From positions 111,144 through 175,143 of the forward strand of contig JALONQ010000004.1 in the NCBI GenBank assembly GCA_025454835.1: 64,000 nucleotides of DNA, written 5' to 3'. The notes beneath the pieces are model-generated. The model was not told the origin of the DNA. It worked only from the letters and a program-made list of their open reading frames with translations, and ran no database searches. Shown here one piece after another: positions 21,120 through 35,788 of the stretch; the stretch's first letter is position 1; each line of letters opens with the position of its first letter. The position numbers and the translations under genes are program-made. The DNA comes from Bacteroidota bacterium (GTDB lineage Bacteria; Bacteroidota; Ignavibacteria; UBA10030).

Positions 21120-22055
21120 TTAGATGGTCACAGAACCTGAGATGCGCGGCATCGGCACTGGGGCGACCCTCGGGGCCAGTTCGCGCACGCGGTCAAGCTC
21201 CCGACGGAACTTGATGACCGCTTCGCCCTCTTCATCTCCATCCCACTCCATCGCGGCGCCGCCGGGATGCATGCGGAAGTACTGCCGCTCGAGACGGCCG
21301 TGCGGGAATTCATCGCTCTCCGTCACTTCGACGGTCAGAGTCTTCTTGACTCCCTTGCGTAGTACCTCCACCTCCATCTTGTCTCCTGCCTCCGCCTTTC
21401 TCAGCTCTTTGCTGATATCATCCACCTCCGAGACCGTCCGCTTGCCGATGCGAATGATCACGTCTCCGGCCTTGATCCCGGCCTTGTCGCCCGCCTTGTC
21501 CTTCTCCACTTCCTCGACCAATACGCCTTCATTGTTGGGCGCGCCAAAATACTCCCCGAGCTGTTTGTTCAGCGACTTGGCCGTCACGCCGAGGGTCGCG
21601 CCGTCGATGAAGACGTGGAACCCCGGAAAGGACGGGATCGCGATCGCATGCCCGAGCGACAGGGAGCTTTTTTCTGAACCGATGACGACTGTCAGGGTCT
21701 TGCGTGCACCGTCGCGATACAACACTATCTCGGACCTCGTTCCGGGAGCCGTGCGTGACACGAAACGTGACAGATCGTCCGGTTCGTAGATCGCCTTGCC
21801 CCCGAACGAGACAATGACATCGCCGCGCTTCAACCCGGCGGAATCGGCGGGGCTGTCGTCCACGACGTCGCCGATGTACGCCCCTTCGTCGTTGGGCAGC
21901 TTTTCGCGTTTCTGAATGCGTTCGGTGACGGTCTGAATCGAGACCCCCAGCCAGCCCTTCTTCTGCTTCGGCTTCTGATCCTCGCCCGATTGCGCGAGTC
22001 CGGCCGGGACCAGGATCAACGCCGCCAGCAGCAACAATGCGTAACGGTGTGACAT
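21120..22055 (-). CDS. secreted tandem-PDZ domain protein
   Basis: It has a signal peptide (MSHRYALLLLAALILVPAGLAQ) and two PDZ-like segments (GAYIGDVVDDSPADSAGLKRGDVIVSFGG; GVLVEEVEKDKAGDKAGIKAGDVIIRIG). The start is taken at the internal Met because the 466-aa ORF extension places the signal peptide internally. Confidence 0.7.
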   Translation of the reverse strand: MSHRYALLLLAALILVPAGLAQSGEDQKPKQKKGWLGVSIQTVTERIQKREKLPNDEGAYIGDVVDDSPADSAGLKRGDVIVSFGGKAIYEPDDLSRFVSRTAPGTRSEIVLYRDGARKTLTVVIGSEKSSLSLGHAIAIPSFPGFHVFIDGATLGVTAKSLNKQLGEYFGAPNNEGVLVEEVEKDKAGDKAGIKAGDVIIRIGKRTVSEVDDISKELRKAEAGDKMEVEVLRKGVKKTLTVEVTESDEFPHGRLERQYFRMHPGGAAMEWDGDEEGEAVIKFRRELDRVRELAPRVAPVPMPRISGSVTI

Positions 22056-22310
22056 GCGGACCTCCTGATGATGGGAATTGGATGACGGCGCGGTGGGGGA
22101 ACGCCATGGTCGCTTCGGCTGACTTCGGCGGACCGGCCATGGGGGCAGCTGATCGAACGTTCCTCGACGGCACAGGATGGTAGACGAAGGCGCTGGGCCG
22201 GGGGTTCCACGCCGCCGGATGCCTTGAGTCTTCCTCGATTTTTGACGTAGTTTCAGCGGGGTTCCGGGCGAGCCCCGATTCGTTCGCTTCATCGATCGAC
22301 CCCCGTCCCC

Positions 22311-23489
22311 ATGGACGACTCCTCCTCCCTCTTCCCTCACGACCTGCCGGACCAGTTCGGCGCGCGCTTCGGACGTCCGCCCGAAGTGATCGCATCGGCC
22401 CCGGGACGCGTGAACCTCATCGGCGAGCACACCGACTACAATGAGGGTTTCGTGTTGCCCGTTGCCATCGACCGCCGCACCTGGGTGGCCATGGCCGCTC
22501 GGGAGGACGGCCGTCTCCATTTTCGATCAGAGACGACGAACGAGGATGTCGAGATCGGGCTCCAGGATGCTGACCATCATCGCCGCAAAGGGTGGTCGTC
22601 TTATCCTGCCGGGATCGTCGCGCTCCTTCGCCAGCAGGGCGTGCCGGTCGGAGGCATGGACGTGCTCATCTCGAGCACCGTCCCGCTCGGCACCGGGCTC
22701 AGTTCGTCGGCGGCCTTGGAGGTCTCGATGGCAACTGGGACGCTTGCGCTCGCCGGGAGTTCCCTGCCGTCGCAGGAACTCGTCCGCCTCTGCCAGCGGG
22801 CAGAGTGGGACTGGGCCGGCGTGCAGTGCGGCATCATGGACCAAACGATCGCCGTCTCGGGAAAATCGCGCGCGGCGCTCTTGATCGATTGCCGCACACT
22901 CGACACCGAGACCGTGCCGCTCGATCCAAGCCTTCAGCTTGTCGTCTGCGACACGGGCATGCCCCGGACGCTGGCGACGTCCGAGTACAACAAACGCCGG
23001 GGTGAATGCGACCAAGCCGTGCGCGAGCTCGGGCGCCATGCAGCCGGGCTGACGTCGCTCCGGGACGTGACGCAGGAGCAGCTCTCGTTATTCGGCCGTC
23101 ACCTCTCCGAGACCCCCCTTCGCCGCGCACGACACGTGGTCACGGAGAACGAGCGTGTCCTGCAAGCCGTCGACGCGCTCTGGCTGCGTGATCACCGTTC
23201 GCTCGGAAAGCTGCTGGGGGCTTCGCATGCCAGTCTGAGAGATGACTACCAGGTGAGCTGCGCTGAACTCGACGTCATGGTCGCCATCTGCCAATCGGTG
23301 CCGGGCGTGTGTGGCGCCCGCATGACCGGAGCCGGGTTCGGCGGTTGCGCGTTGGCTCTCGCCACGCCCGGTGCGGTCGGCGCATTGACAGAGGCCGTCA
23401 TGAGCCGGTATCCGCAACACACCGGCCGCACACCGTCGGTCGTCACCTGCACGGTGGGCGACGGGACCCGTGCGGTACGCGTCGGATGA
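22311..23489 (+). CDS. galK: galactokinase
   Basis: The galactokinase signature GRVNLIGEHTDYNEG and the GHMP kinase ATP motif (PLGTGLSSSAALEV) are present. Confidence 0.9.
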   Translation: MDDSSSLFPHDLPDQFGARFGRPPEVIASAPGRVNLIGEHTDYNEGFVLPVAIDRRTWVAMAAREDGRLHFRSETTNEDVEIGLQDADHHRRKGWSSYPAGIVALLRQQGVPVGGMDVLISSTVPLGTGLSSSAALEVSMATGTLALAGSSLPSQELVRLCQRAEWDWAGVQCGIMDQTIAVSGKSRAALLIDCRTLDTETVPLDPSLQLVVCDTGMPRTLATSEYNKRRGECDQAVRELGRHAAGLTSLRDVTQEQLSLFGRHLSETPLRRARHVVTENERVLQAVDALWLRDHRSLGKLLGASHASLRDDYQVSCAELDVMVAICQSVPGVCGARMTGAGFGGCALALATPGAVGALTEAVMSRYPQHTGRTPSVVTCTVGDGTRAVRVG

Positions 23490-23514
23490 CGGCCCCGAAC
23501 TTACTTTTCTCGCA

Positions 23515-25779
23515 ATGAAGTTCCTCGCCCATCTCATCATCGGCACGCTTGCCGCCGCTGCTGCCGCGGCTCAGCCCGTGACGCTCCGGCTGGTGAACTG
23601 GGCCACGCCGGAGGAGATGGATCTGGACCGGAAGGCCATTGTGCTTTTCGAGGAACGCCATTCTGGCATTCGGGTCCTTTACGAACCGAACCCCGGACGG
23701 CAATACGAAGAGAAGATCCTCACCGCGCTGGCCGCCGGAGCGCCTCCCGACGTCTTTCTGCTCGATTCGAAGCTCATCCCAACCTTCACGAACAAAAGGG
23801 TCCTGCTCGACCTGACGCCGTACATCGGTCCACTCGGCATCGACACGACGCAGTGGTTTCCGAATGTCCTCGCGATCGGCCGACGCAACGGCGGGCTCTA
23901 CGCGTTTCCGAAGGGTTTCACGCCGCTCATGATGTTCTACAACCGCGCGCTCTTCCGGGAAGCGGGGATCGCGGAGCCGACACCATCGTGGACATGGGGA
24001 GATCATCGCCGGATCGCCGCGTCGCTCACCCGTGATCGCGACGGCGACGGAACGCCCGACCAATACGGCACGTCGTTCACGAACTACTACTACTTCTGGA
24101 TCGTCTGGGTCTGGAGCGCGGGGGGCGATGTTGTGACCGAGGACGGACTGCGTGCGACCGGTGCGCTGACGTCGGCGGCGACGGAGGAGGCGATCACATT
24201 CCTTACGGACCAGCGGACGCGCGACCGGGTGGCGCCCGACGTCGGCAGTTGGGTGCAGTCGGAGCGGACCGGCACGAATGCACAGCTCTTCGCCAACGGC
24301 CGTGTGGCGATGAGTCTGGATGGTCATTGGCGGTTGCCGACCTACGCGCGATATGTGCGCGAGGGGAAGCTCGACCTGGGCGTTGCACCGTTGCCGCTGC
24401 ATCCGAGCGGCCGGAAGGTGAACGTCATGTACCAGAGCGGATGGTGCGTACCTGTCGGCGCGTCGCATCCGCGTGAGGCGGCGATGCTTGCGGCGTTCAT
24501 GGCCGGGCCGGAGGCGGCGCGGATCCGCTCGTCACAGCATCTGGAGATCCCGGCCGTGCGGTCCGTTGCGGAGGAGATCGTCGCAATCGACCCATACGGC
24601 TGGGAGCGCCCGTTCGTGGAGGAAGTGCCGTTCTGCCGTCAGCCATGGGGTTCGGTCATCGAGCGGTTCAGCGAGATCGAGTGGACGCTGCAGGACGCGG
24701 TCGACGACGTCGTCTTGAACGGCGTGCCGGTCAACCAAGCGCTCGCGAAGGCGGCGCTCAAAGTGGACCGGCAGTTGGAGGAGATCAGGTCGCACGCGGC
24801 GTTCACGTTTGCGCCCATCGAAGAGCATTCGGAGATCTTACAGACGCTGGCGGCCGTGGCGGCGGCGGTGGCGGGGGCAATGTTCCTTCTCTATAGAAGA
24901 GCGCGGCGCAGGGACCGGCCGGCGGCCTTGCGGTCCATCGGATTTCTGGCGCCTTCGCTCATTCATCTGACCGTCTTCCTCGCCACGCCGATGGTCTTCT
25001 CGGCGTATCTCAGCCTCCACCGCTGGGACCTCGTCGTACCCGACACGCCGTTCGTCGGGCTCGAGAACTTCGTCGTGATGTTCGGCGACGAGAGCTTCTG
25101 GAATGCTCTGCGGAACACGCTTCTGTTCTCTCTGAACGTTCCATTCGGTCTGGCGTTGGCCCTGGGCGTCGCTTTGTTGTTGCATCGGCGCTTCACCGGC
25201 GTGGCGGTCCTCCGGACCATCTACTTCCTTCCGAGCGTCACGTCGTTCGTGGCCATTGCCCTCGTGTGGATGTGGATCTACCATCCGACCTTTGGCGCGG
25301 CCAACTATCTCCTGTCGCTCCTCGGCCTGCCGCCGATTCCCTGGCTCAACTCCACGCAGACGGCGATGCTGAGCGTCGTCATCTTTACGATCTGGCTGGG
25401 GATGGGCTACCAGATGGTGGTCTTCCTGGCGGGACTGCAGGGCATTCCCGAGGAGTACTACGAAGCGGCCCGCATGGACGGAGCCACGGCGTGGCAGCGG
25501 TTCCGGCGCGTGACGTTTCCGTTGCTGATGCCGACGACGTTCTTCCTGCTCATCACCTCGCTCATCTCGTCGTTCCAGGCCTTCACGTCGATCTACGTCA
25601 TGACGGCCGGCGGGCCCGTGGGAAGCACCGACGTGATCGTCTACCATATCTACCAAGCGGCGTGGGAGCAACTGCGGATGGGGTACGCGTCGGCGATGGC
25701 GTGGGTGTTGTTCGTGCTGATCCTGGCGGCGACCTGGGTGCAGTTCCGGTTGGTGGGGAGGGGTGTGGAGTACTCTTAG
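23515..25779 (+). CDS. carbohydrate ABC transporter substrate-binding protein fused to permease (MalE/UgpB-like + MalF/UgpA-like)
   Basis: The N-terminal ~430 aa is a periplasmic sugar-binding domain with a signal peptide (MKFLAHLIIGTLAAAAAAAQ). The C-terminal ~300 aa is a six-TM permease with the EAA loop (EAARMDGATAWQRFRRVTFPLL). The whole is one continuous frame. The ORF-track start at 23470 uses GTG; 23515 is the ATG. Confidence 0.8.
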   Translation: MKFLAHLIIGTLAAAAAAAQPVTLRLVNWATPEEMDLDRKAIVLFEERHSGIRVLYEPNPGRQYEEKILTALAAGAPPDVFLLDSKLIPTFTNKRVLLDLTPYIGPLGIDTTQWFPNVLAIGRRNGGLYAFPKGFTPLMMFYNRALFREAGIAEPTPSWTWGDHRRIAASLTRDRDGDGTPDQYGTSFTNYYYFWIVWVWSAGGDVVTEDGLRATGALTSAATEEAITFLTDQRTRDRVAPDVGSWVQSERTGTNAQLFANGRVAMSLDGHWRLPTYARYVREGKLDLGVAPLPLHPSGRKVNVMYQSGWCVPVGASHPREAAMLAAFMAGPEAARIRSSQHLEIPAVRSVAEEIVAIDPYGWERPFVEEVPFCRQPWGSVIERFSEIEWTLQDAVDDVVLNGVPVNQALAKAALKVDRQLEEIRSHAAFTFAPIEEHSEILQTLAAVAAAVAGAMFLLYRRARRRDRPAALRSIGFLAPSLIHLTVFLATPMVFSAYLSLHRWDLVVPDTPFVGLENFVVMFGDESFWNALRNTLLFSLNVPFGLALALGVALLLHRRFTGVAVLRTIYFLPSVTSFVAIALVWMWIYHPTFGAANYLLSLLGLPPIPWLNSTQTAMLSVVIFTIWLGMGYQMVVFLAGLQGIPEEYYEAARMDGATAWQRFRRVTFPLLMPTTFFLLITSLISSFQAFTSIYVMTAGGPVGSTDVIVYHIYQAAWEQLRMGYASAMAWVLFVLILAATWVQFRLVGRGVEYS

Positions 25780-25782
25780 CGG

Positions 25783-25850
25783 GAGAAGCGTTACACAGAG
25801 ATCCACCGAGCTTTCACAGAGGTCTACAGAGCGCGTGACGATGTGAAGTG
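25783..25850. repeat. palindromic repeat element, CACAGAG subfamily (partial copy)
   Basis: gaagcgttacacagagatccaccgagctttcacagaggtctacagagcgcgtgacg. Confidence 0.5.
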
Positions 25851-25907
25851 GGACTTTGTCTGAACTTTGGTACTTTGTAAGCAGTCACTTTTTCAAGTAG
25901 GGGGGAT

Positions 25908-26288
25908 ATGACAACGCAACGAGATCCGCTGACCCATTCGATTATTGGTTGCGCAATCGAGGTGCATCGCGTGCTCGGACCTGGCCTGTTGGAATCGGCA
26001 TACGAAGCGTGCCTGATTCATGAGCTCACTCGGCAAGGCCTACCAGTTGACCGTCAGGTATCGGTGCCAGTTGAATTCAAGGGCATGGTGCTCGACTGCG
26101 GCTAGCGCTTGGACGTGCTTGTGGATGACTCCGTCATCATCGAGATCAAAGCGATCGATTTACTGCTTCCAGTGCACACGGCCCAACTGCTCACATATAT
26201 GCGCTTCGCCAAAAAGCGCGTCGGACTCCTGCTCAATTTCAACGCACCGTCCCTCCGCCAAGGGCTCAAAAGGTTCGTCATGTAACTC
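25908..26288 (+). pseudogene. GxxExxY-family (PD-(D/E)xK-like) gene interrupted by an in-frame TAG at 26103-26105
   Basis: The ORF reads MTTQRDPLTHSIIGCAIEVHRVLGPGLLESAYEACLIHELTRQGLPVDRQVSVPVEFKGMVLDCG*. The same frame then continues as [46 protein letters not shown].... The TAG sits where the family has a conserved Tyr (..DCGYRLDLLV..), consistent with TAY to TAG. TAG is used as a real stop elsewhere, for example at the end of the SBP-permease gene. Confidence 0.6.
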
Positions 26289-26335
26289 TGTGGGTCTCTG
26301 TGCCCGCTCTGTGGAACTCTGTGCCACGCTTCTCA
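26283..26335. repeat. palindromic repeat element, CACAGAG subfamily (right-arm copy) in the pfk leader
   Basis: ctctgtgggtctctgtgcccgctctgtggaactctgtgccacgcttctc, ending in the CGCTTC terminal inverted-repeat half. Confidence 0.55.
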
Positions 26336-26357
26336 TTCGTCGACCTGGAGAACCTAC

Positions 26358-27461
26358 GTGTCCACCATCAAGAAGATCGCCATCAGTACCGGTGGCGGTG
26401 ATGCACCGGGCTTGAACGCTGTCATCCGTGCGGCCGTTATTGCCGCCATCAATCGGGGATGGGAGGTCGTCGGGATCCGCGACGGTTACAACGGCATCCT
26501 TTTGCCCAAGCAGTATCCGCAGGGCGGGGTCTTTGCGCTCACGCGACGCGAGGTCAGGGGTATCACGCATCTGGGCGGCACCATCCTCGGCACGACAAAC
26601 AAGGGCAATCCGATGAACTATCCCGTCCAGCAGCCGGACGGGACCTTCAAAGAGACGGACCGGACCGGCGAGTTGGTCGACGGCATGAGAAAGCAGGGCA
26701 TCGACGCGCTCATCAGCATCGGCGGCGACGGCTCGCTGACGATCGCGAACGCCATCGCCCAGAAGGGCATGAAGGTCGTCGGGGTCCCCAAAACGATCGA
26801 CAACGATCTGGACCGTACCGTCATGACCTTCGGCTTCGACACAGCCGTGTCGTTCGCCACGGAATGCATCGACCGGCTGCACTCGACGGCCGAATCGCAT
26901 CGGCGCGTCATGGTGGTGGAAGTGATGGGACGGTATGCCGGGTGGATCGCCCTGAACTCCGGCATCTCGGGAACGGCCGACGCCATTCTGATCCCGGAGA
27001 TCCCGTATGACATCGAAAAGGTGGCCGACAAGATCCGGGCGCGGGAAAAGGGGGGATCTCACTTCTCCATTGTCGTTGTGGCCGAGGGGGCCATGGCCAA
27101 AGGTGGTTCTCGGGCGGTCATCGGCAACGAGGTCGGCCGTCTGGAACGCCTCGGCGGGGCCGGTGAACGGGTGGCCAAAGAACTGCAGGCGGCCACCGGC
27201 AAGGAGAGTCGGTGCGTCGTGCTGGGCCATCTCCTCCGCGGCGGGTCGCCGACGACCTTCGACCGGCTGATCTCGCTCCGGTTCGGCGCGGCCGCCGTGC
27301 GAGCGCTGGATGAAGGCCAGTCGGGCGTGATGGTGGCACTCGACCCTCCGGCCGTTCGGTATGTGCCGTTGTCCGAGGCCACGCATCGCATGAAAGTGGT
27401 CCCGCTGGATTGCGATACCATCTTGACCGGGAGAGATCTCGGGGTGTGCTTCGGGGATTGA
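26358..27461 (+). CDS. pfkA: 6-phosphofructokinase
   Basis: PFK family motifs are present (GGDAPGLNAVIRA; ISIGGDGSL; PKTIDNDL; MGRYAGWIAL). Confidence 0.9.
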   Translation: MSTIKKIAISTGGGDAPGLNAVIRAAVIAAINRGWEVVGIRDGYNGILLPKQYPQGGVFALTRREVRGITHLGGTILGTTNKGNPMNYPVQQPDGTFKETDRTGELVDGMRKQGIDALISIGGDGSLTIANAIAQKGMKVVGVPKTIDNDLDRTVMTFGFDTAVSFATECIDRLHSTAESHRRVMVVEVMGRYAGWIALNSGISGTADAILIPEIPYDIEKVADKIRAREKGGSHFSIVVVAEGAMAKGGSRAVIGNEVGRLERLGGAGERVAKELQAATGKESRCVVLGHLLRGGSPTTFDRLISLRFGAAAVRALDEGQSGVMVALDPPAVRYVPLSEATHRMKVVPLDCDTILTGRDLGVCFGD

Positions 27462-27700
27462 AAGAAGCGGGACACAGAGATCCACAGAGGAAAAGAGGAG
27501 TTCCGCCGAGAACATGTACCGTTTTTCTCTGTGGGTCTCTGTGCTACTCTGTGTAGCTCTGTGACATGTTTCTCTTCGCTGTGATCAGACGAAGCGGGAC
27601 ACAGAGTTCCACAGAGGAAAAGAGAAGTTCCACGAAGGAAGATATGAATCGCTCTGTGGATCTCTGTGCGGTCTCTGTGGGTCTCTGTGTCATGTTCCTA
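27461..27700. repeat. two tandem full-length palindromic repeat elements, CACAGAG subfamily
   Basis: Copy 1 is gaagcgggacacagagatccacagaggaaaagaggagttccgccgagaac...ctctgtgggtctctgtgctactctgtgtagctctgtgacatgtttctcttcgc. Copy 2 is gaagcgggacacagagttccacagaggaaaagagaagttccacgaaggaag...ctctgtggatctctgtgcggtctctgtgggtctctgtgtcatg. CACAGAGTTCCACAGAG is the reverse complement of CTCTGTGGAACTCTGTG. Confidence 0.7.
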
Positions 27701-27708
27701 ACTGGGGC

Positions 27709-28524
27709 TTGATCTTGCTGCTCCGCACTTCCAAATTCCTCCTCCTCACCGGCCTCGGCCTGACCATGCTCCTTCCGTTTGTCTGGATGCTCAGCACGGC
27801 GCTGATGACCGATGCGGAGGTGTACCAGTTCCCGCCGCGGTTTCTGCCGGCCGAATGGCGCTGGTCCAACTTCGCCGAAGCGCTGACGATGCAGCCGTTC
27901 GGCCGGTTCTTCCTGAACTCTCTCGTTGTTTCGTTGGCCGCCACGGCAGGCCAGGTGCTCTTTTGTTCGATGGCGGCCTACGCGTTCGGTCGTCTGCGCT
28001 TTCCGTGGCGCGACCGGGTCTTTGCAATCTACCTGTCGACCATGATGGTCCCGGCGATCGTAACGATCATTCCGGCCTTCCTGATCATCAGTTCCTTCGG
28101 CTGGATGAACAGCTACCAGGCCCTCTTCAGCCCTTTGCTCTCATCGGTCTGGGGGATCTTCTTGCTCCGGCAGTTCTTCCTGACGATCCCGCGAGACCTC
28201 GAAGATGCGGCGCGCATGGATGGGGCCGGAGATCTGGCGGTGTTTTTCCGCGTGATCGTGCCCCTTTCCAGGCCGGCGCTGGCGACGCTGGCGATCTTTG
28301 CCTTCATGGGGTCGTGGAAGGACTTCCTCTGGCCGCTGCTTGTGACGAATCGGATCGACATGCGCACGGTGGAGGTCGGGATCGCCGGGTTCAACTCGAT
28401 GTACGCCACCGATTGGCCGCACCAGATGGCGGCAGCCGTCGTGGTGCTGATCCCCGTGGTGACCGTATTCTTGCTCGCGCAGAAGCATTTCGTGCGGGGG
28501 ATCACGATGACGGGACTCAAATAG
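27709..28524 (+). CDS. carbohydrate ABC transporter permease (MalG/UgpE-like)
   Basis: It has six TM helices and the EAA motif (DLEDAARMDGAGDLAVFFRVIVPL). Confidence 0.85.
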   Translation: MILLLRTSKFLLLTGLGLTMLLPFVWMLSTALMTDAEVYQFPPRFLPAEWRWSNFAEALTMQPFGRFFLNSLVVSLAATAGQVLFCSMAAYAFGRLRFPWRDRVFAIYLSTMMVPAIVTIIPAFLIISSFGWMNSYQALFSPLLSSVWGIFLLRQFFLTIPRDLEDAARMDGAGDLAVFFRVIVPLSRPALATLAIFAFMGSWKDFLWPLLVTNRIDMRTVEVGIAGFNSMYATDWPHQMAAAVVVLIPVVTVFLLAQKHFVRGITMTGLK

Positions 28525-28526
28525 TG

Positions 28527-28625
28527 AAGCGTTACACAGAGGAAAAGAGAAGTTCCACGAAGGAATATGTCTATTCCACTCTGTGGGTCTCTGTGACATC
28601 TCTGTGGAACTCTGTGTCACGTTTT
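28527..28625. repeat. palindromic repeat element, CACAGAG subfamily
   Basis: gaagcgttacacagaggaaaagagaagttccacgaaggaatatg...ctctgtgggtctctgtgacatctctgtggaactctgtgtcacg. Confidence 0.65.
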
Positions 28626-28652
28626 TCCCTTAGACCTCACGCCTGACTGAAT

Positions 28653-31205
28653 ATGACCTTGCGAACTCTTCTCCTGTCAGCAATTACCGCATCGCTGGCA
28701 ACCGCCCAGCCAAACCTTCCCTCTTTCAGGATCGAGCCGAACGATCTGCTCCTCTCGCGACCGGCGCAGGCGGGGACCTACTTCGACAAGGTCGGCCGGA
28801 AGTTCGCGGTCCTCGGCACCGAAAGCGGTACGTTCGAGGCATGGGCGTATCCGCTCAAGCTCGTCCGCAATGCCGAACTCAGCTTCTTTCTCGGCAGTTC
28901 CACCGAGCCGGTGCTGGCCAAGGACATTGTGCGGACGGTCGAAGTAACGCCCGAAGTGACGACGCTGACCTACACGTATCAGTCGTTCACGCTCCGCGTC
29001 CACTATCTGACGCCCATCGAGCAGCCGGGCGCGTATCTGCTGCTGGACCTCCGCTCGACCGAACCGCTGACGATCGTCTGCTCGTTCATTCCTGTGCTGC
29101 AGCCGATGTGGCCCGCCGGGCTCGGCGGTCAGTCGGCCAGATGGTTGGACGACCTGAAGGCCTACCAGATCAGCGAACCCACGAGGAAGAACACGGCTTA
29201 CATCGGGTCGCCGATGGGAAGCGGCATGTCGTATACGCCAGCCCACATGCTCTCCGACCGTCCGAGCCAGTTCAAGATCGTCATCGACAAGCCCGAGACC
29301 GTGCGCGGCAAGCTCATCCCGATCGTCGTCGCCGGCGGGCGCGGACCGCGAGATTCCATCCGGGCGACCTATCAGCGGCTGGTCTCGGAGCCCGAGCTTC
29401 ACTACCGCAACGCCGTGCAGCATTACCGGAACCTGCGAGCGTCCACGGTACGCATCGCCACGCCGAACCCGGAGATCAATCTGGCCTTCGAATGGGCGAA
29501 GGTCGCGTACGACAATCTGTTCGTCCGGAATCCTGACGTGGGGCTGGGCATGGTTGCCGGCCTCGGTCTGTCGGGCACGAGCGGACGGCCGGGCTTTGGT
29601 TGGTTCTTTGGCGGGGATGCGTACATCAACTCCTTCTCGCTCAACTCGTACGGCGCTTCGAACGCAGCCCGCGATGCGCTCCTGTTCACCCACCAATGGC
29701 AGCGCGAGGACGGTAAGATGGCGCACGAGCTGACGCAGGCCGCCGCCTACGTCGACTGGTGGAAGGACTATCCGTACGGCTACATCCACGGCGATACGTC
29801 CCCCTTCTATGTATGCGCGGTGTGGGACAACTTCCGACACACCGCCGACTCGGCGTTCGTTCGCGAACACTGGTCGGTCGTGCGGAAGGCCTATGATTGG
29901 TCGCTGGCCACGGACGAGGACGGCGACGGATTGATGGATAACAAGAAGGCGGGGCTGGGCGCCCTGGAGTACGGACCGCTCACCGAGATCCAATCGGACA
30001 TCTATACGGGCGCCGTGTGGGTTCGCGCGGCGGCCGTGATGCCGTCGCTGGCCCGCATCGTCGGCGACACGCTCTTCGCGCAATCGGCTGAGACGTACAG
30101 CGTCAAGGCTGCCAAAGCGTTCGACCGGAGGTTCTGGGACGAGCGGAATCAACAGTATGCCTACGCCTTCACGTCGCGCGGACAGCAGGTGGACATCGTA
30201 TCACCCTGGAATTCTGTCGGGCTGATGTGGGAACTCGGCGACCCGGCCCGCAGCGTCAAGTCGCTGTTGAAGCTCAATTCCGCGGAACTCTCGACCGACT
30301 GGGGGATCCGCAGCCTCTCGAACAAGAGCAAGTACTACGAGCCGCTCAACTACAACTACGGAGCGGTGTGGCCGTTCCTCTCGTCATGGGTGGCGACGGC
30401 ACAGTTCAAGCACCATCTGCTCCTGCAGGGGTACGCCACGCTCATGGCATCGGTGCGCCACACCTTCGACCACGGACTCGGCGTGATCACAGAGGTCTTC
30501 TCGGGCTCGCAGAACATCTGGCCGCAGGAGGCGGTGGCCCACCAGGGCTTCAGCTCGGCCAGCGTGGTGCTGCCGCTCATGCGGGGACTCGCTGGGCTCG
30601 AGGTCGACGCGCCGCGGCGGACCGTCCACTTCTCACCGCATCTCCCCGCCGACTGGGACCGGCTGACGCTGCAGAACATCAGCGTGGCGGGCAACACCGT
30701 CGCGCTGGAGTATTCACGGACACGGACAAAAGCGACGGTCAAGGTCCGGTCGATCGGCGCTCAGCCGGTGCAGGTGGTCTTCGCGCCGGCATTGGGCATC
30801 GGCACGGGCGTGGGCAAGGCGCGGGTCGACGGACGCGAGATCGCCTACCGGCTCATCGTGTCGTCGCAGACGGTCCAGCCGCTGATCGAGGTTCCCGCCG
30901 GAGCGGAAACGACCGTCGAAGTGGAACTCCTGCCGACGGTGGAGCTGCTGCCTCCGCCCGTCACTACCACGACGGGAGCGCCGAACCGCTCGCTCAAGAT
31001 CCTCGCGATCAACTTCAAGGACAAGCAGTTGAAGGTGAGCGTGGAAGGGCTTGCTCGGGAGACCTACGAGTTGACGATCACGAACGACGACCTGCTCCAA
31101 TCCGTGAGCGGCTGTAGGCGAGAGGGACGTAAGCTGTTCCTGATGATGCCCGAAGGACCGGCGGAGGAGTTCGTGCGGTCGGAGTTCATGTTGACAGTCC
31201 GGTGA
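28653..31205 (+). CDS. secreted six-hairpin glycosidase, amylo-alpha-1,6-glucosidase (GDE_C)-like
   Basis: It has a signal peptide (MTLRTLLLSAITASLATAQ). The catalytic core is (alpha/alpha)6-type (GFGWFFGGDAYINSF...LFTHQWQREDGKMAHE...DGDGLMDN...NYGAVWPFLSSW). The family was assigned by eye. Confidence 0.6.
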   Translation: MTLRTLLLSAITASLATAQPNLPSFRIEPNDLLLSRPAQAGTYFDKVGRKFAVLGTESGTFEAWAYPLKLVRNAELSFFLGSSTEPVLAKDIVRTVEVTPEVTTLTYTYQSFTLRVHYLTPIEQPGAYLLLDLRSTEPLTIVCSFIPVLQPMWPAGLGGQSARWLDDLKAYQISEPTRKNTAYIGSPMGSGMSYTPAHMLSDRPSQFKIVIDKPETVRGKLIPIVVAGGRGPRDSIRATYQRLVSEPELHYRNAVQHYRNLRASTVRIATPNPEINLAFEWAKVAYDNLFVRNPDVGLGMVAGLGLSGTSGRPGFGWFFGGDAYINSFSLNSYGASNAARDALLFTHQWQREDGKMAHELTQAAAYVDWWKDYPYGYIHGDTSPFYVCAVWDNFRHTADSAFVREHWSVVRKAYDWSLATDEDGDGLMDNKKAGLGALEYGPLTEIQSDIYTGAVWVRAAAVMPSLARIVGDTLFAQSAETYSVKAAKAFDRRFWDERNQQYAYAFTSRGQQVDIVSPWNSVGLMWELGDPARSVKSLLKLNSAELSTDWGIRSLSNKSKYYEPLNYNYGAVWPFLSSWVATAQFKHHLLLQGYATLMASVRHTFDHGLGVITEVFSGSQNIWPQEAVAHQGFSSASVVLPLMRGLAGLEVDAPRRTVHFSPHLPADWDRLTLQNISVAGNTVALEYSRTRTKATVKVRSIGAQPVQVVFAPALGIGTGVGKARVDGREIAYRLIVSSQTVQPLIEVPAGAETTVEVELLPTVELLPPPVTTTTGAPNRSLKILAINFKDKQLKVSVEGLARETYELTITNDDLLQSVSGCRREGRKLFLMMPEGPAEEFVRSEFMLTVR

Positions 31206-31286
31206 AAGCTGATGAGGTGAAGACGGGAGTGGTAAGAAATAGATTCTGAGTCAGAAGTAGTAGATACAGATCAAGTAAGGGGGGGT
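31206..31286 (+). promoter_or_regulatory. AT-rich leader carrying the conserved TCAAGTA-G6 motif upstream of four-helix-bundle gene 1
   Basis: ...gtcagaagtagtagatacagatcaagtaagggggggtATG. Paralogous leaders lie at 33972-34060 and 25850-25907. Confidence 0.4.
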
Positions 31287-31661
31287 ATGGACAAAGTATT
31301 CAAGGCGCGTTTGTATGCGTTCACGCTTCGGTTGATCTCGTACGTCCGATCGTTGCCTTCGGACTTCGTCAACCGCAGGATGGGAGATCAACTAATCAGG
31401 AGCGGCACGAGTATCATCGCCAACATGACAGAAGGCGGATCGGCCGCAAGCCGACGAGACTATGCCAACTATACCAATCACGCGCTCAAATCGGCCAACG
31501 AGACCCATCTCTGGCTGTCGCTCCTTCAAGATTCCGGGTTGAGAACAGCAGAGTCAGAGTGGTTGATGCGTGAAGTCACGGAGATCGCCCGCATCCTGGC
31601 GGCAACGCTGATCACACTTCGACGCTCCTTACGAAATCAGTCAACGAGGCCGCAACCCTGA
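31287..31661 (+). CDS. four-helix-bundle protein (TIGR02436 / '23S rRNA intervening-sequence protein' / Avd-like family), copy 1
   Basis: MDKVFKARLYAFTLRLISYVRSLPSDFVNRRMGDQLIRSGTSIIANMTEGGSAASRRDYANYTNHALKSANE. It is about 80% identical to the copy at 34061. Confidence 0.75.
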   Translation: MDKVFKARLYAFTLRLISYVRSLPSDFVNRRMGDQLIRSGTSIIANMTEGGSAASRRDYANYTNHALKSANETHLWLSLLQDSGLRTAESEWLMREVTEIARILAATLITLRRSLRNQSTRPQP

Positions 31662-31688
31662 AGCCGCTTTCTTTTTCACTTCAACTTC

Positions 31689-33971
31689 ATGCCTTCTAAC
31701 TTTTCTCCTCTCTCCCTCCTCACTCGTCCCGACAAGTGGTATCTCGGGGGCGGCAACCGCCTGCTCTACGCTCCCGCCTTCCCGCTCCACCGCTCCACGC
31801 CGGGATTGTGGGACACGGCTCACTATTACAACTATCCACTCCAACCGCTCTTCTCGTACGCCATTCTCGCCGATGACGGGCACGAGATCCCGCTTACGCA
31901 CGCTTCGTCTTCATGGCGGCCGGACGGCTGGACGCGCCGCTTTGTGGCCGCCGACAAGACGATCGAACTATCCGAGGTCAGTGTACTCCTGCCGCTCGAT
32001 GTCGTCGTCTCCCGACTCACGATCCGCAATCGCACGTCGCGAGGGCTTCGTCTGCGCGTGGTCGGCTTCACCGCCCGGGAGCATCGCCCCGGCGGGACGA
32101 CGTGGGTCACCGATGCGACAATGGACCGCGCGGCCGCGATCTGGATGCAACACGTGCACCCGGAGAAGCGCCCGGCGCTCGCGATCGGGTGCGCCTTCGG
32201 CTGCGACGGAAGCGGAGTCCGGATCGAAGGCGGGCTCAGCGAGGGGGTCGCGACCCTGCCGTTATGGAGCCACACGCCGTTCTCCGAATCCGTCCGGTCC
32301 CGACGGAAGCCCAGAGGCATTTCAATGGAAGGCGTCACGGCCGAGGGTCATCTCTGGATCTCTGCCGAGCGATCGATCACGCTGCGACCGAAGACCCGGG
32401 CTGTTGTCCACTTCGGCTTTGCCGCATCGTCGAGCGCTGATGAAGCGCGTCAGGCCCTACAGACGGCCATGAGCCGCAAAGATCCCATCGGGCTTTCGAC
32501 GGCGGCGTGGAAGGACCATTTCGCCTCGGTCCCGCAATTCCGGAGTTCCGACCCCTTCCTGACGGCGGCGTATTGGTACCGGTGGTACGGCCTCCGTCTC
32601 AACACCATCTACGGCGGCGAGGGGAACTACGAACATCCCGCGGTGTGCGAGGGGATCGGGTACTTCCGCGCCCCAATTTCCTACAGCGCGCCGTGTCACA
32701 TGCTCGAGAACCGGTGGATGCACGACCCGGACCTCGCTCGCGGCAGCCTGCGGACCTTCATCGCCAACCAGCGCGACGACGGCGGATTCCGCGGCTATAT
32801 CGATGTGAACCATTATCGGCAAGAGATGCATGGGGCGAGCGTGGTCGAGCCCTTCTATCATGCTGACTGGGGCAGAGCGGTGCTGGCACTCGATGCCGTA
32901 CATCCGTCGGACGAATTCCTGACCGAAGCGTATGACGGATTGAAGAAGTACGCGTCGTACTTCGACAAGGAACGGGACGAAGAGGTCAGCGGTCTCTACG
33001 ACATCGACAATCACTACGAGACCGGCCAGGAGTACATGCACCGTTACACAGCGGTGGACCCGAACGCCGACCGGGACAACTGGGGCGAGGTCTTTCGCCT
33101 CAAGGGCGTCGATGTGACAGTGTATCTCTACGAACTGAAGCGCGCCCTTGCGGCGATGGCGCGCCGGCTCGGGAAGGACGATGAGGCGGGGCTTTGGGAC
33201 ATGGAGTCGGACCGGACCCGCGAGGCGGTGCGCACGATCATGTGGGACCCGGTGCAAGAGATGTTCTTCGACGTCGACCCGAAGACCGGACGAAGGACCG
33301 GCGTGAAAGCCGCCACGTGCTTCTATCCGTACCTCACCGATATCGTCACCAGGGGACATCTCACCGGACTCAAGCGGCACCTGCTGTCGCCGAAGGAATT
33401 CTGGACCCCGTGGCCTGTTCCGTCCACGAGCGTCGACGACCCCACCTTCTCGGCCGAGCCGGTCTGGAAGGGAAAGCGGATGAACTGTCCGTGGAACGGG
33501 CGTGTGTGGCCGATGACGAACAGCCACATCATGGAAGCCCTCGCGGCTTCGGCCGGGCGTTTCAACGACCGGCGGCTCGAAAAGGCGGCCTCCGAATTCC
33601 TGTCGAAGTTCATCCGAATGCTCTTTTTCGACCAGGATCCAACGCGTCCGAACTGCTTCGAGCACTACCATCCGTTCACGGGTCAACCGAGCGCCTATCG
33701 CGGTGTGGACGACTACATGCACTCGTGGGTGAATGATCTGATCATTCATCACGTGATGGGCATCCGGGCCGAGCCGGGAGTGGTTCGCGTACGCCCTTTG
33801 TCGATGGGTCTCGCAGAGGCGCGGATCAGCGGGGTCATCATCCAAGGAAGTTCATTCGATGTGTCACTGCGAGACCGGCAGTTCACCGTGTGGCAGGACC
33901 GTCAGATCGTGGGCACGCAGCGGCTCGGGAAGACGATCGAGATACAACTCGAAAGGAGTCAAATATTCTAA
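31689..33971 (+). CDS. cytoplasmic six-hairpin glycosidase (GH63/GH37 'MGH1/trehalase-like' type)
   Basis: A large (alpha/alpha)6 catalytic region is present (YWYRWYGLRLNTIYGG...CEGIGYFRAPISYSAPCH...DDGGFRGYID...NCPWNGRVWPMTNSHIMEAL). There is no signal peptide. The GH family was assigned by eye. Confidence 0.6.
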   Translation: MPSNFSPLSLLTRPDKWYLGGGNRLLYAPAFPLHRSTPGLWDTAHYYNYPLQPLFSYAILADDGHEIPLTHASSSWRPDGWTRRFVAADKTIELSEVSVLLPLDVVVSRLTIRNRTSRGLRLRVVGFTAREHRPGGTTWVTDATMDRAAAIWMQHVHPEKRPALAIGCAFGCDGSGVRIEGGLSEGVATLPLWSHTPFSESVRSRRKPRGISMEGVTAEGHLWISAERSITLRPKTRAVVHFGFAASSSADEARQALQTAMSRKDPIGLSTAAWKDHFASVPQFRSSDPFLTAAYWYRWYGLRLNTIYGGEGNYEHPAVCEGIGYFRAPISYSAPCHMLENRWMHDPDLARGSLRTFIANQRDDGGFRGYIDVNHYRQEMHGASVVEPFYHADWGRAVLALDAVHPSDEFLTEAYDGLKKYASYFDKERDEEVSGLYDIDNHYETGQEYMHRYTAVDPNADRDNWGEVFRLKGVDVTVYLYELKRALAAMARRLGKDDEAGLWDMESDRTREAVRTIMWDPVQEMFFDVDPKTGRRTGVKAATCFYPYLTDIVTRGHLTGLKRHLLSPKEFWTPWPVPSTSVDDPTFSAEPVWKGKRMNCPWNGRVWPMTNSHIMEALAASAGRFNDRRLEKAASEFLSKFIRMLFFDQDPTRPNCFEHYHPFTGQPSAYRGVDDYMHSWVNDLIIHHVMGIRAEPGVVRVRPLSMGLAEARISGVIIQGSSFDVSLRDRQFTVWQDRQIVGTQRLGKTIEIQLERSQIF

Positions 33972-34060
33972 GTAAGAAGTGATAGATACAAATCATGTGG
34001 TGCAAGTAAGACATTCTAAGCAGGAAGTGGTAGATACAGAACATTTGAGGGGGGAACACC

Positions 34061-34438
34061 GTGGATAGGGTCTTTAGGGATCGCCTGTACAAATTCACGC
34101 TTCGTCTGATCGCATACATCGAACCTTTGCCGTCGGATGTCGTCAGCCGTCGAGTCGGAGATCAACTCATTCGCAGCGGAACGAGCGTCATCGCCAACAT
34201 GACCGAAGGCGGTTCGGCGGCAAGCCGACGAGACTACGCCAACTATACCAATCACGCGCTCAAGTCTGCCAACGAGAGCATCTTGTGGCTCTCGCTTCTA
34301 CGCGACTCCGGCCGAGGTGGTCCAGAGTCGGAGTGGTTGATGCAGGAAGCCACGGAGATCGGACGCATTCTCGCCGCCACGTTGATCACACTGCGCAAGA
34401 GCCCAAGAAGGCCGCCTCGGGAATCAGTCAACCCCTGA
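34061..34438 (+). CDS. four-helix-bundle protein (TIGR02436-like), copy 2
   Basis: MDRVFRDRLYKFTLRLIAYIEPLPSDVVSRRVGDQLIRSGTSVIANMTEGGSAASRRDYANYTNHALKSANE. The ORF track gives M, but the genomic codon is GTG. It is preceded by a duplicated leader (agaagtgRtagatacaRa x2, then G6). Confidence 0.75.
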   Translation: MDRVFRDRLYKFTLRLIAYIEPLPSDVVSRRVGDQLIRSGTSVIANMTEGGSAASRRDYANYTNHALKSANESILWLSLLRDSGRGGPESEWLMQEATEIGRILAATLITLRKSPRRPPRESVNP

Positions 34439-34477
34439 GCTTTATCTATGACTTTTTCTCTTTCACCTATCACTTAG

Positions 34478-35788
34478 ATGTCCTCTCCCGATCTCCGTCG
34501 CTCCCTCTCGCTCTTTGACCTTTCGCTCATTGCGATCGGCTCCTCGATCGGTTCAGGCATTTTTCTGACACCCGCGCTCATCGCGCAGTCGTTGGATGCG
34601 CCGATGTGGATCCTTGGAGTCTGGCTGCTGGGCGGCGTGATGGCGCTGTGCGGGGCGTTGACGTTCGCCGAACTCGGTGCGATGCTCCCGCGGGCCGGAG
34701 GGGTGTACGCGTTTCTGACGGAAGCGTACGGCGGCACGGTGGGATTCCTGTATGGCTGGGCGTACTTTCTCGTCGCCAACACCGGAGCGCTCGGTGCGCT
34801 GGCCATCGCCTTCTCAACCTACTTCGGCTACTTCGTCCCGCTCAGTGAGACTGGAACGCTGGCTGTGGCGATCGGCGGGATCATTCTCGTGACGATCATC
34901 AACGTCCTGGGGGTGAAGGCTGGGGGCATCTTCTCCGACGTCTTTACCCTGCTCAAGCTGGCGGGCATCGGCGTGTTGGTCGTGGCAGGGTTCGGCTGGG
35001 GCTCGGCGGCGACGACCGATCTCTTCACTTCGCTTTCCGTCGGCGAAGGGGGGCTGGCGTCTGCCATCACGCTGGCCGCCGTCAGTGTCCTCTGGTCGTA
35101 CGGAGGATGGCAACATGCCACGTTCACGGCCGCGGAGGCCAAGGACCCGCAGCGAACGGTGCCACGCGCTTTGATCATCGGCGCCTCTGTCGTGACGGCG
35201 GTGTATCTCATCACGAACCTCGCCTACCTCTTTCTCCTGACGCCCCAGCAGATGGCCGCATCGCCCCGCGTGGCTGCCGATGCTCTCGCTTCGGTCATGG
35301 GGCCGGTGGGCGGGTCGATCATCGCGCTCACCATCTTCATCTCCACGTTCGGCACGACGGGCATCTACACGCTGACGGCGCCGCGTATCTACTACGCCAT
35401 GGCAGCCGACGGCGTCTTCTTTCGCAAAGTGGCCGAGGTCCATCCCCGATTCCATACGCCGATCTATGCCATTCTCCTCCAGTCGGTCTGGGCGATCATC
35501 CTGCTCCTGTTCTGGGGAACGTACGAGAAGCTCATCTCGTACGTCGTATTCACCGACTGGATCTTCTTTGCGCTGGCCGCCGCGGCGGTCTTTGTCCTTC
35601 GGCGCACGCGTCCGACGGCAGACCGTCCGTACCGAACATTCGGTTATCCGTTCACGCCGGCCCTGTTCGTCCTGCTCGCGTCGCTGTTCGTTCTCTACAC
35701 GCTCGTCGAGAAGCCGCTCGAATCGGGCGTCGGGCTCGCTTTTCTGGCGCTCGGCATTCCCGTGTACCGGATGTGGAGGCGCGCCTGA
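34478..35788 (+). CDS. APC-family amino acid/polyamine permease
   Basis: It has twelve predicted TM helices and the AA_permease N-terminal signature (LSLFDLSLIAIGSSIGSGIFLTPALIA). Confidence 0.85.
   Translation: MSSPDLRRSLSLFDLSLIAIGSSIGSGIFLTPALIAQSLDAPMWILGVWLLGGVMALCGALTFAELGAMLPRAGGVYAFLTEAYGGTVGFLYGWAYFLVANTGALGALAIAFSTYFGYFVPLSETGTLAVAIGGIILVTIINVLGVKAGGIFSDVFTLLKLAGIGVLVVAGFGWGSAATTDLFTSLSVGEGGLASAITLAAVSVLWSYGGWQHATFTAAEAKDPQRTVPRALIIGASVVTAVYLITNLAYLFLLTPQQMAASPRVAADALASVMGPVGGSIIALTIFISTFGTTGIYTLTAPRIYYAMAADGVFFRKVAEVHPRFHTPIYAILLQSVWAIILLLFWGTYEKLISYVVFTDWIFFALAAAAVFVLRRTRPTADRPYRTFGYPFTPALFVLLASLFVLYTLVEKPLESGVGLAFLALGIPVYRMWRRA

Follow-up and report, generated by a model that had tools for sequence, protein, structure and literature searches.

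A probable carbohydrate ABC importer with its binding protein fused to the first permease, an inherited pfk gene and later spacer repeats in an Ignavibacteria-like bacterium

How is a binding protein with a signal peptide joined in one polypeptide to the first permease of a sugar ABC transporter, and how did a 6-phosphofructokinase gene (pfk) and a set of palindromic repeats come to lie between the two permease genes of the same cluster? Both questions are raised by a 64,000-nt stretch of DNA from a Bacteroidota bacterium (assembly GCA_025454835.1, contig JALONQ010000004.1, positions 111,144 to 175,143). The whole of this stretch is called the window, and its numbering is used for all coordinates; numbers with L or P denote loci or proteins of relatives that were fetched for comparison. 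The gene order is galK, the fused gene (binding domain, an added transmembrane helix termed TM0, and permease 1), a GxxExxY gene, pfk, permease 2, a GH116-like gene, a gene of the 23S rRNA intervening sequence (IVS) protein family (IVP), a GH63-like gene, a second IVP gene and an amino-acid permease gene; every feature from galK to the second IVP gene lies on the forward strand. We consider it likely that a fused transporter, an inherited pfk and spacer repeats that came later are combined here in a carbohydrate-utilisation cluster of an Ignavibacteria-like bacterium of the Fibrobacterota-Chlorobiota-Bacteroidota (FCB) group.

In the six-frame list of open reading frames (ORFs), the fused gene is a single uninterrupted frame from 23470 (GTG) or 23515 (ATG) to 25779, encoding 754 amino acids (aa) from the ATG (23515-25779). 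Pfam detected SBP_bac_1/SBP_bac_8 at residues 42-353 (PF01547, E = 4.5e-36; PF13416, E = 3.3e-31) and BPD_transp_1 at residues 545-746, and in NCBIfam residues 477-753 correspond to positions 17-294 of the UgpA profile (E = 2.8e-40). These matches bear out the earlier assignment of the product as a MalE/UgpB-type substrate-binding protein (SBP) joined to a MalF/UgpA-type permease. The architecture is signal peptide, binding domain, added transmembrane (TM) helix and UgpA/MalF-type permease. The hydrophobic N terminus supplies a signal peptide of residues 1-19, with Ala and then Gln at its end (23515-23571). It is followed by the putatively periplasmic binding domain (approximately residues 20-430; 23572-24804), which is recognized by SBP_bac_1, the AlphaFold2 model and Foldseek; the top Foldseek matches are oligosaccharide SBPs with target-normalised TM-scores of 0.8-0.89. 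TM0 (residues 440-460) and a basic loop of sequence RRARRRDR (residues 461-468) occupy 24832-24918 and are delimited by hydropathy, the AlphaFold2 model and the homology boundaries. The permease core (residues 477-753; 24943-25773) has the EAA loop EAARMDGA, carries BPD_transp_1 and matches the UgpA, GlcT and MalF models as well as the solved SugA, AlgM1 and MalF chains. The AlphaFold2 model has a mean predicted local distance difference test score (pLDDT) of 72, and the binding domain (residues 20-430) is modeled confidently, mostly at 85-95. No solved chain covering both halves of the fused protein was found by PDB sequence comparison.

Permease 2 (27709-28524; 271 aa, TTG start) is a UgpE/MalG-type protein with BPD_transp_1, a match to the UgpE model at E = 6.7e-51 and the EAA loop EDAARMDGAG. 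The cluster thus encodes two distinct BPD_transp_1 subunits, one UgpA/MalF-like and one UgpE/MalG-like, each with an EAA loop, together with a binding domain of the MalE/UgpB class, as is characteristic of carbohydrate uptake transporter-1 (CUT1) importers. This composition points to a type I, CUT1-class ABC importer with its binding protein covalently tethered to the first permease.

Three further public assemblies (one a JGI metagenome, one from NCBI and one the Logan assembly of an SRA run) contain the same DNA at 100%, 99.98% and 100% identity over 4.4-6.4 kb, and the fused ORF is included in all three. A protein search returned 214 homologs at E ≤ 1e-10. Among the matches listed (120 of the 214), identity is 62-87%, length is 728-832 aa, and PF13416 and PF00528 are both present; the named sources are Ignavibacteriae, Ignavibacteriales or Bacteroidota metagenome-assembled genomes (MAGs). 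A locus scan, using one genome per species, found one ORF spanning both domains in 24 fetched loci. The single-ORF fusion occurs in all Ignavibacteria-type loci (L001-L020), including Melioribacter, Fidelibacterota, Rhodothermales and Chitinophagales MAGs, and also in four far more distant loci from Planctomycetota, Armatimonadota, Phycisphaerales and Hinthialibacteria; the usual separate genes were found in approximately 50 other fetched loci. In a HMMER scan of 1.84 billion cluster representatives (50%-identity clusters), the best 150 were examined, and 56 of these are at least 700 aa long and align over both halves at approximately 30-55% identity. Binding domain and transmembrane domain (TMD) are therefore kept in one polypeptide among homologs. 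The fusion is ancient, under selection and widespread in Ignavibacteria-like bacteria, and it is not an error. The preliminary description of this DNA, made from the sequence alone, had called the gene a continuous SBP-permease fusion, which the ORF, the Pfam domains, the three other assemblies and more than 200 homologs confirm. It had also called the architecture uncommon; this holds among carbohydrate importers overall, but the architecture is neither rare nor new, given a large family and a Bdellovibrio precedent. Fused genes of approximately 750 aa should not be "corrected" into two during annotation.

The fusion may not have been a fixed character throughout the wider family. In unfused Gemmatimonadota relatives, the binding protein is 39-43% and the permease 55-57% identical to the corresponding part of the fused protein. 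The distant fused relatives stand farther away, at 23-30% (binding domain) and 41-43% (permease), and fusion or fission therefore probably happened more than once in the history of the family. In Gemmatimonadota and other relatives, the permease homologs nearest to the window protein (50-57% identity) have another kind of N-terminal extension, 300-580 aa in length (L027, 11212-13113; L028, L036 and L041; proteins P0128, P0134, P0136 and P0146). Upstream of these genes lie malK and an independent gene for the binding protein. The extension has no Pfam match, and the idea that it is a degenerate binding domain was rejected, as hhalign against the family alignment matched the permease half only.

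The means of tethering is found between the two halves. TM0 has the sequence EILQTLAAVAAAVAGAMFLLY, and its Kyte-Doolittle 19-residue mean peaks at 2.15. In the hydropathy profile, RRARRRDR comes next along the chain, with the first permease-core helix after it, and AlphaFold2 places helices at residues 439-462 and 465-501. TM0 is N-terminal to all sequence that aligns with stand-alone UgpA or with solved SugA, AlgM1 or MalF, and is in this sense an extra helix. In a 24-sequence family alignment (A1), it is hydrophobic but variable in sequence, the basic cluster persists, and the flanks are invariant (F432-x-P434 on one side and F477 onward on the other). A hydrophobic helix lies in the linker (36-108 residues) of 53 among the 56 distant fused cluster representatives, and in another subset of 53 the 14 residues after the helix contain 3-8 Lys or Arg, typically 3-6. 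At the other end of the binding domain, each of the 23 complete sequences in A1 closes its N-terminal hydrophobic stretch with [A/G/S]-Q, and the conserved strand [VI]TLRL follows 3-4 residues later. PMC5837995 describes a Bacteroidetes "Q-rule", in which signal peptidase I cuts before Gln, and states that the rule is not valid across the whole FCB group. Because of this restriction, cleavage before Gln20 can be said only to fit the pattern.

Signal peptide, TM0 and positive-inside loop together suggest that the binding domain lies outside the membrane, and the membrane topology of the fused protein may be pictured as follows. The precursor would be exported via the Sec signal peptide and probably cut before Gln20, and the binding domain would fold in the periplasm. 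TM0 would then cross the membrane from outside to inside, and RRARRRDR would hold the chain on the cytoplasmic side, so that the N-in six-helix core of UgpA type could insert in its normal orientation. In the assembled transporter, one binding domain per translocator would be kept beside the entrance formed by permeases 1 and 2, powered by a MalK/MsiK-type ATPase that would have to be encoded elsewhere.

No Walker-A/LSGGQ motif was found in any frame of the window, and tblastn with MalK over its whole length gave no match better than E = 1, in agreement with the earlier observation that no ATPase is encoded locally. A MalK homolog was likewise not found within ±10 kb of loci L001-L020; one is encoded immediately upstream in the distant fused loci L023 and L037 and in the Gemmatimonadota loci. 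For this transporter class it is ordinary that the ATPase is encoded elsewhere and often shared between systems (MsiK, MsmK). The missing local ATPase is thus likely to be unexceptional, with a partner encoded elsewhere in the genome.

The gene that separates the permease pair, pfk (26358-27461), belongs to the PfkA family (PF00365, E = 2.6e-100, 335.8 bits). Its product scores 362.8 bits against NF002872 (cutoff 253) and 416.9 against TIGR02483, just under the cutoff of 430.55. The PFK domain is above threshold, and the translation contains PKTIDND and the ATP-type motif GGDG (as IGGDGS), which suggests that ATP is the phosphoryl donor. In close relatives pfk also directly follows the fused gene: in L001 (fused protein 87% identical), in L002 (80%), in L209 and in L210/L211. 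The PFK of L002 is 84% identical to that of the window over the BLASTP alignment. A separate clade, with fused proteins at 62-67% identity, has pfk after the fused gene as well (L004, L005, L009, L011 and the P0010 contig). The order in the L004/L009/L011-type clade is fused gene, pfk, GH18 gene and permease 2; the spacers are 22-35 nt in L004, L005 and the P0010 contig, the loci covered by gene calls; and no clusters of CACAGAG/CTCTGTG, the unit of the window's repeats, occur in L004, L005, L009 or L011. The permease genes are adjacent or otherwise separated, without pfk, in L003, L006, L008, L010 and L014, and L007 has the order fused gene, GxxExxY gene, permease 2. All deeper fused relatives (L012, L013, L018, L019, L023, L037 and L050) have the permease pair without pfk, and the permease genes are adjacent in the outgroups Melioribacter, Fidelibacterota, Rhodothermales, Planctomycetota, Phycisphaerales and Hinthialibacteria.

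It follows that pfk is a derived but old insertion, which has been inherited and was not caused by the repeats. It entered before the split from the relatives at 80% identity and possibly before the split from those at 62%. From its setting, with galK upstream and two glycoside-hydrolase-like genes downstream, pfk may best be understood as a catabolic gene that a sugar-utilisation operon has taken up. The preliminary description had taken it for a secondary insertion into a once-contiguous permease pair. In a deep sense this stands, as distant fused relatives have adjacent permease genes; a recent, repeat-associated arrival does not, as relatives at 62-67% identity show the same fused gene and the same pfk position without repeats, the finding that the description itself had named as an argument for an ancestral arrangement. 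A glycolytic gene between two permease genes should accordingly not be taken by annotators for a recent disruption.

Whether pfk came once or twice is a separate matter. On a neighbor-joining tree of the fused protein, built without support values, the pfk-bearing clades are split by pfk-less lineages; one ancient gain therefore requires at least two losses, or else two gains occurred. Two independent entries into the inter-permease spacer, one in the clade of the window, L001, L002, L209 and L210 and the other, together with GH18, in the L004/L009/L011 clade, would account for the patchy distribution on the transporter tree, where L007 and the clade labeled B are without pfk, and for the different companion genes (GH18 in one clade, GxxExxY in the other). 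We nevertheless regard a double entry as rather doubtful. Slot, orientation and position right after the fused gene are alike in the two clades, single-gene losses are easy, and PFK identity (approximately 85% within the clade and 75-79% between clades) is in proportion to that of the neighboring permease 2 (87% and approximately 76%). This proportionate divergence would weakly favor one gain.

The remaining occupants of the spacers are a GxxExxY gene and palindromic repeats. Downstream of the fused gene, a left arm of CACAGAG-type units (25783-25833; inverted repeats I1/I2) and a right arm of four CTCTGTG units (26286-26334; inverted repeats, fold and duplex energy) enclose the GxxExxY gene (25908-26285). 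The arms pair over approximately 50 bp in both the minimum free energy and the centroid folds of the 571-nt region, and their duplex energy is -69.6 kcal/mol, compared with -26.6 ± 4.3 kcal/mol for shuffled arms. The arms were found with seeds of 6-8 nt; an inverted-repeat scan of the whole window with 10-nt seeds returned nothing, because the arms are imperfect. Three further palindromes are without an ORF: E2 (27463-27573; fold -47.6 kcal/mol, z = -3.7) and E3 (27590-27699; -47.6 kcal/mol, z = -4.35) between pfk and permease 2, and E4 (28526-28625; -36.8 kcal/mol, z = -3.1) just after permease 2. Palindromic repeats had already been noted between the permease genes; they comprise one arm pair, E2 and E3, with E4 lying beyond. 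The pattern CTCTGTGN3CTCTGTG, with at most one mismatch, has 13 matches in the 64 kb against 0.05 expected, all of them within 25794-28616. E2, E3, E4 and the same-spacer element of L002 are all homologous (77% mean column identity in alignment A3). L002 has one element per spacer, and its spacer between the fused gene and pfk has the same arms and leader and no GxxExxY ORF. L210 has a 37-nt spacer after pfk and a 54-nt spacer after permease 2. An Rfam scan of 25700-28700 at E ≤ 1 gave two spurious matches to miRNA models, far below their gathering scores, and no rRNA.

The GxxExxY gene (PD-(D/E)XK_3 family) consists of two collinear half-matches to PF13366/TIGR04256, which are in register (the first half scores 68.3 bits against a cutoff of 35) and are separated by an in-frame TAG at 26103-26105. 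This stop, at codon 66, cuts what would be an intact frame of approximately 120 aa and stands where orthologs have the Tyr of a G-Y-R motif. It is the same in the three other assemblies, and thus in four with the window, which upholds the earlier description of the gene as disrupted. In L001, L209 and L210-L213, the ortholog that occupies this slot is intact, so that the nonsense codon is confined to the window copy. dN/dS was 0.04 and 0.15 in the two comparisons with an estimable synonymous distance, the third being saturated. Intact orthologs and low dN/dS therefore indicate a maintained gene, and the same-slot copies appear to be under purifying selection and vertically inherited. The family is very large, 7998 of 8000 scored candidates having E ≤ 1e-10. 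Its proteins are 60-70% identical between Ignavibacteria, Bacteroidales, Prevotellaceae and Dehalococcoidia, an unusual conservation across phyla, and most of them lie on contigs of approximately 1-2 kb, as expected of multi-copy sequences that break assemblies.

Bracketed cassettes of this kind were found at the window locus (25783-26334) and in L001 (2576-3150), L209 (2874-3456), L210 (252-848), L133 (4764-5239), L214 (2881-3467), L217 (1973-2474), L223 (1965-2502) and L224 (1828-2437). Their arms are inverted arrays of 2-9 heptamers with the consensus CAC[A/G][A/G]A[G/T] and a period of 10-11 nt, and the unit variant is matched in the two arms. Specifically, the units are CACAGAG/CTCTGTG in L214 (a Bacteroidales MAG) and in the metagenome contigs L133, L217 and L224, as in the window; both arms consist of CACGAAG/CTTCGTG units instead in L001, L209 and L210-L213; and the units are CGCAGAG/CTCTGCG in L223 (a Dehalococcoidia MAG) and CACGAAT/ATTCGTG at the second GxxExxY copy of L007 (an Ignavibacteria MAG). 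The first copy of L007 has a CACAAAG/CTTTGTG hairpin just downstream instead. Annotated "long" GxxExxY proteins of 137-139 aa (e.g. MKLLTTESQRHRETE... in L217) seem to start inside the left arm. At all 9 distinct fetched sites with gene calls, the GxxExxY gene is co-directional and lies in a spacer between host genes. At least 120 metagenome stretches contain the repeat pattern, in most cases as a hairpin without an ORF; only one or two of them adjoin a GxxExxY gene.

Both the repeats and the GxxExxY gene settled in the spacers later and in particular lineages, independently of the arrival of pfk, and E2-E4 look like derivatives of the GxxExxY cassette. We tentatively propose, as something short of an even chance, that gene and palindromes are two forms of one undescribed element: a G-rich, ribosome-binding-like leader and a small nuclease-fold gene set in inverted arrays, and ORF-less forms of approximately 110 nt that resemble miniature inverted-repeat transposable elements or repetitive extragenic palindromic (REP) sequences. 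Such an element would settle co-directionally in intra-operon spacers across several phyla. The arms may co-vary because they pair, as RNA or single-stranded DNA, into a stem that encloses the ORF, like that of a 23S IVS, or else because the encoded protein recognizes the two of them, as in REPtrons or at terminal inverted repeats. We found no description of a GxxExxY-heptamer cassette, and nothing specific on GxxExxY or PDDEXK_3 in association with such repeats, in the literature searched. Operon spacers of environmental bacteria commonly contain GxxExxY genes in co-varying arrays, along with palindromes that have no ORF, and the proposal, if true, would give a function and a mechanism of mobility or processing to a family of many thousands that is now annotated by a motif only.

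The palindromes could instead act as intercistronic RNA hairpins that tune expression of the operon, through processing and stability or by occluding the ribosome-binding site of permease 2. REP hairpins tune relative expression in this way at malE-malF of E. coli. The hairpins of the window are strong (-37 to -48 kcal/mol, z of -3.1 to -4.4), with slightly higher stability on the mRNA strand, the same spacers are occupied in L002 by elements approximately 77% identical, between flanking proteins approximately 80-87% identical, and the stem of E3 ends approximately 13 nt before the TTG start of permease 2. We consider a regulatory role possible but unlikely, as L004 and L210 have no elements in the same spacers, the copy number varies (two between pfk and permease 2 here, one in L002), the same motif is scattered over at least 120 unrelated metagenome contigs, and there is no Rfam family. 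At the start of permease 2 (27693-27711), the N-terminal sequence differs from that of L002 (MNQPHNW...); from this and the proximity of E3 to the TTG, the palindrome may have remodelled, or may occlude, the translation start.

With both pfk and the repeats described, the earlier view can be weighed that pfk, the GxxExxY gene and the repeats came together as a recent, perhaps repeat-mediated insertion into a contiguous permease pair. Repeats do lie on both sides of pfk in the window and nowhere else in the 64 kb, GC content falls at the spacers, and the permease genes are adjacent in deep outgroups. A joint recent arrival is nevertheless very improbable: the same pfk slot occurs with tight spacers at 62-67% identity in loci without CACAGAG clusters (L004, L005, L009 and L011), PFK divergence scales with that of the flanking transporter genes, and repeat content varies among close relatives (L002, L210). 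Least of all can the fusion be an artefact in which a sequencing or assembly error erased the stop between a malE-like and a malF-like gene, a practically negligible prospect even though most CUT1 operons fetched (approximately 50 loci) have separate adjacent genes, as the same ORF is present in three other assemblies, more than 200 homologs from independent samples have the same length and domain pair, and the linker encodes a TM helix conserved in kind and a basic loop needed for topology, not a read-through spacer.

The wider locus provides a carbohydrate context. The cluster begins with galK (22311-23489; GalKase_gal_bdg, GHMP_kinases_N and GHMP_kinases_C), which is upstream of the fused gene in many relatives as well. 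Permease 2 is followed by an 850-aa GH116/GDE-like (alpha/alpha)6 glycoside hydrolase (28653-31205; PF22422, PF04685 and PF06202), whose gene is syntenic in relatives, and then by IVP1 in an operon spacer (31287-31661; PF05635, E = 1.7e-17). A 760-aa MGH1-like/GH63-like hydrolase comes next (31689-33971; PF22422, E = 6.5e-48; a distant YgjK match), and IVP2 lies in the next spacer (34061-34438; tblastn, PF05635 gene call), 78% identical to IVP1. With galK, pfk and two glycoside-hydrolase-like genes as context, the substrate is probably a carbohydrate. An assignment of the substrate was attempted by fold search with the binding domain and PDB searches with the hydrolases, and was given up because no match was close enough. 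Another, larger GH116/GDE-like paralog lies after the amino-acid permease gene (35956-39294; 1112 aa, 25% identical to the 850-aa protein). L004 and L005 have a similar 1125-aa GH116/GDE-like gene, and the sugar-utilisation cluster therefore probably extends to about 39.3 kb. The cluster genes are likely to be co-transcribed. A scan of 22000-34500, which does not cover Bacteroidota-type promoters, found no sigma-70 promoter, and terminator-like sites were at background.

Several observations weigh against this reading as a whole. The binding domain is only approximately 20% identical to solved SBPs, which have many specificities, the AlphaFold2 model of the permease half is poor (pLDDT 30-60), and both hydrolases have only remote solved relatives in PDB sequence searches. 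In addition, neither L007, which is sister to the window clade, nor the clade of L003, L006, L008, L010 and L014 has pfk.

Three spacers of the one operon hold small "passenger" genes, one of them GxxExxY and two IVP. L007 has a GxxExxY gene (6794-7054) between its GH116-like and GH63-like genes, in the spacer that contains an IVP gene in the window, and this slot is therefore used by different families. A run of at least six G precedes the start of the GxxExxY gene and of both IVP genes at short distance (25890-25910, 31270-31289 and 34045-34063; in L001, 2685-2705). The GxxExxY gene and IVP1 have a near-identical leader, TCAAGTA(A)GGGGGG, and IVP2 has a G6 run; the G-run is an unusual ribosome-binding-like motif to be common to unrelated small ORFs. 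No convincing inverted arms were found at the IVP genes, and the cassette model was therefore not extended to them.

Comparison of the spacer occupants with known systems reveals partial likenesses. As with the REP sequences of the malE-malF spacer, intergenic palindromes lie inside a sugar ABC operon. REPtrons, in which a RAYT gene is flanked by inverted REPs, also consist of a small nuclease-family gene bracketed by a repeat that is found as an ORF-less palindrome as well. However, a REPtron encloses a Y1 (HUH) transposase and the cassette described here a PD-(D/E)XK (GxxExxY) protein, so that the geometry alone is similar and the cassette is not a REPtron. The cassette differs further in its arms of 2-9 heptamers at a period of 10-11 nt and in the apparent vertical inheritance of the same-slot copy. 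Intervening sequences of 23S rRNA that carry an ORF of the IVP/"S23p" four-helix-bundle family were reportedly described by Ralph and McClelland in 1993. Here too, inverted repeats on either side of a small ORF form a long stem with the ORF in its loop, and IVP-family genes of the 23S IVS type fill two neighboring spacers of this operon. Nevertheless, a 23S IVS sits in an rRNA helix and the present cassette between protein-coding genes, and it is therefore not an IVS.

For the transporter, the closest permease homologs are those of UgpAE, LpqY-SugABC and AlgM1M2SS, in which EAA loops are present. They differ in that the binding protein is separate (free or lipid-anchored) and TM0 is absent. 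To our knowledge, the Bdellovibrio system is the only sugar importer of the fused kind that has been studied. The maltose/maltodextrin transporter of B. bacteriovorus has MalE and MalF fused in a single chain and hence at a fixed ratio of 1:1 (Licht et al. 2019, Res Microbiol 170:1, as recounted in PMC6906923). By that account, it is likewise a CUT1-type sugar importer of a diderm with one MalE-type domain within the polypeptide of a MalF-type permease. Its MalE domain (PDB 6ffl) is a structural match to the binding domain of the window protein (Foldseek rank 7). The two binding domains are approximately 18% identical and come from different phyla, the permease described here is of the short six-helix UgpA type, in contrast to the long MalF of Bdellovibrio, and pfk is embedded in the operon here, unlike in the Bdellovibrio system.

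Substrate-binding domains are also fused to the TMD in the type I importers GlnPQ and OpuA (PMC8025302, PMC3971661). Like the window protein, GlnP has an N-terminal signal sequence, then its binding domain or domains and then the TMD (PMC8025302, PMC3971661). However, GlnPQ and OpuA belong to amino-acid and osmoprotectant families, have small cluster-F domains, are mostly Gram-positive and contain homodimeric TMDs with 2 or 4 binding domains. Here a large MalE-type domain is on one subunit of a heterodimeric TMD pair, which would give one binding domain per complex. Nothing specific on fused sugar SBP-permeases in Ignavibacteria or in CUT1 systems was found in the literature searched. The family offers many naturally occurring sugar importers from a wide range of phyla, each with what should be exactly one tethered binding domain for every translocator. 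It also suggests how simply the topology problem may be solved, by an added helix with a basic loop, and could be used to test the effect of tethering on affinity, stoichiometry and coupling. The architecture is thus of a known kind, of which this family is a large, uncharacterised member.

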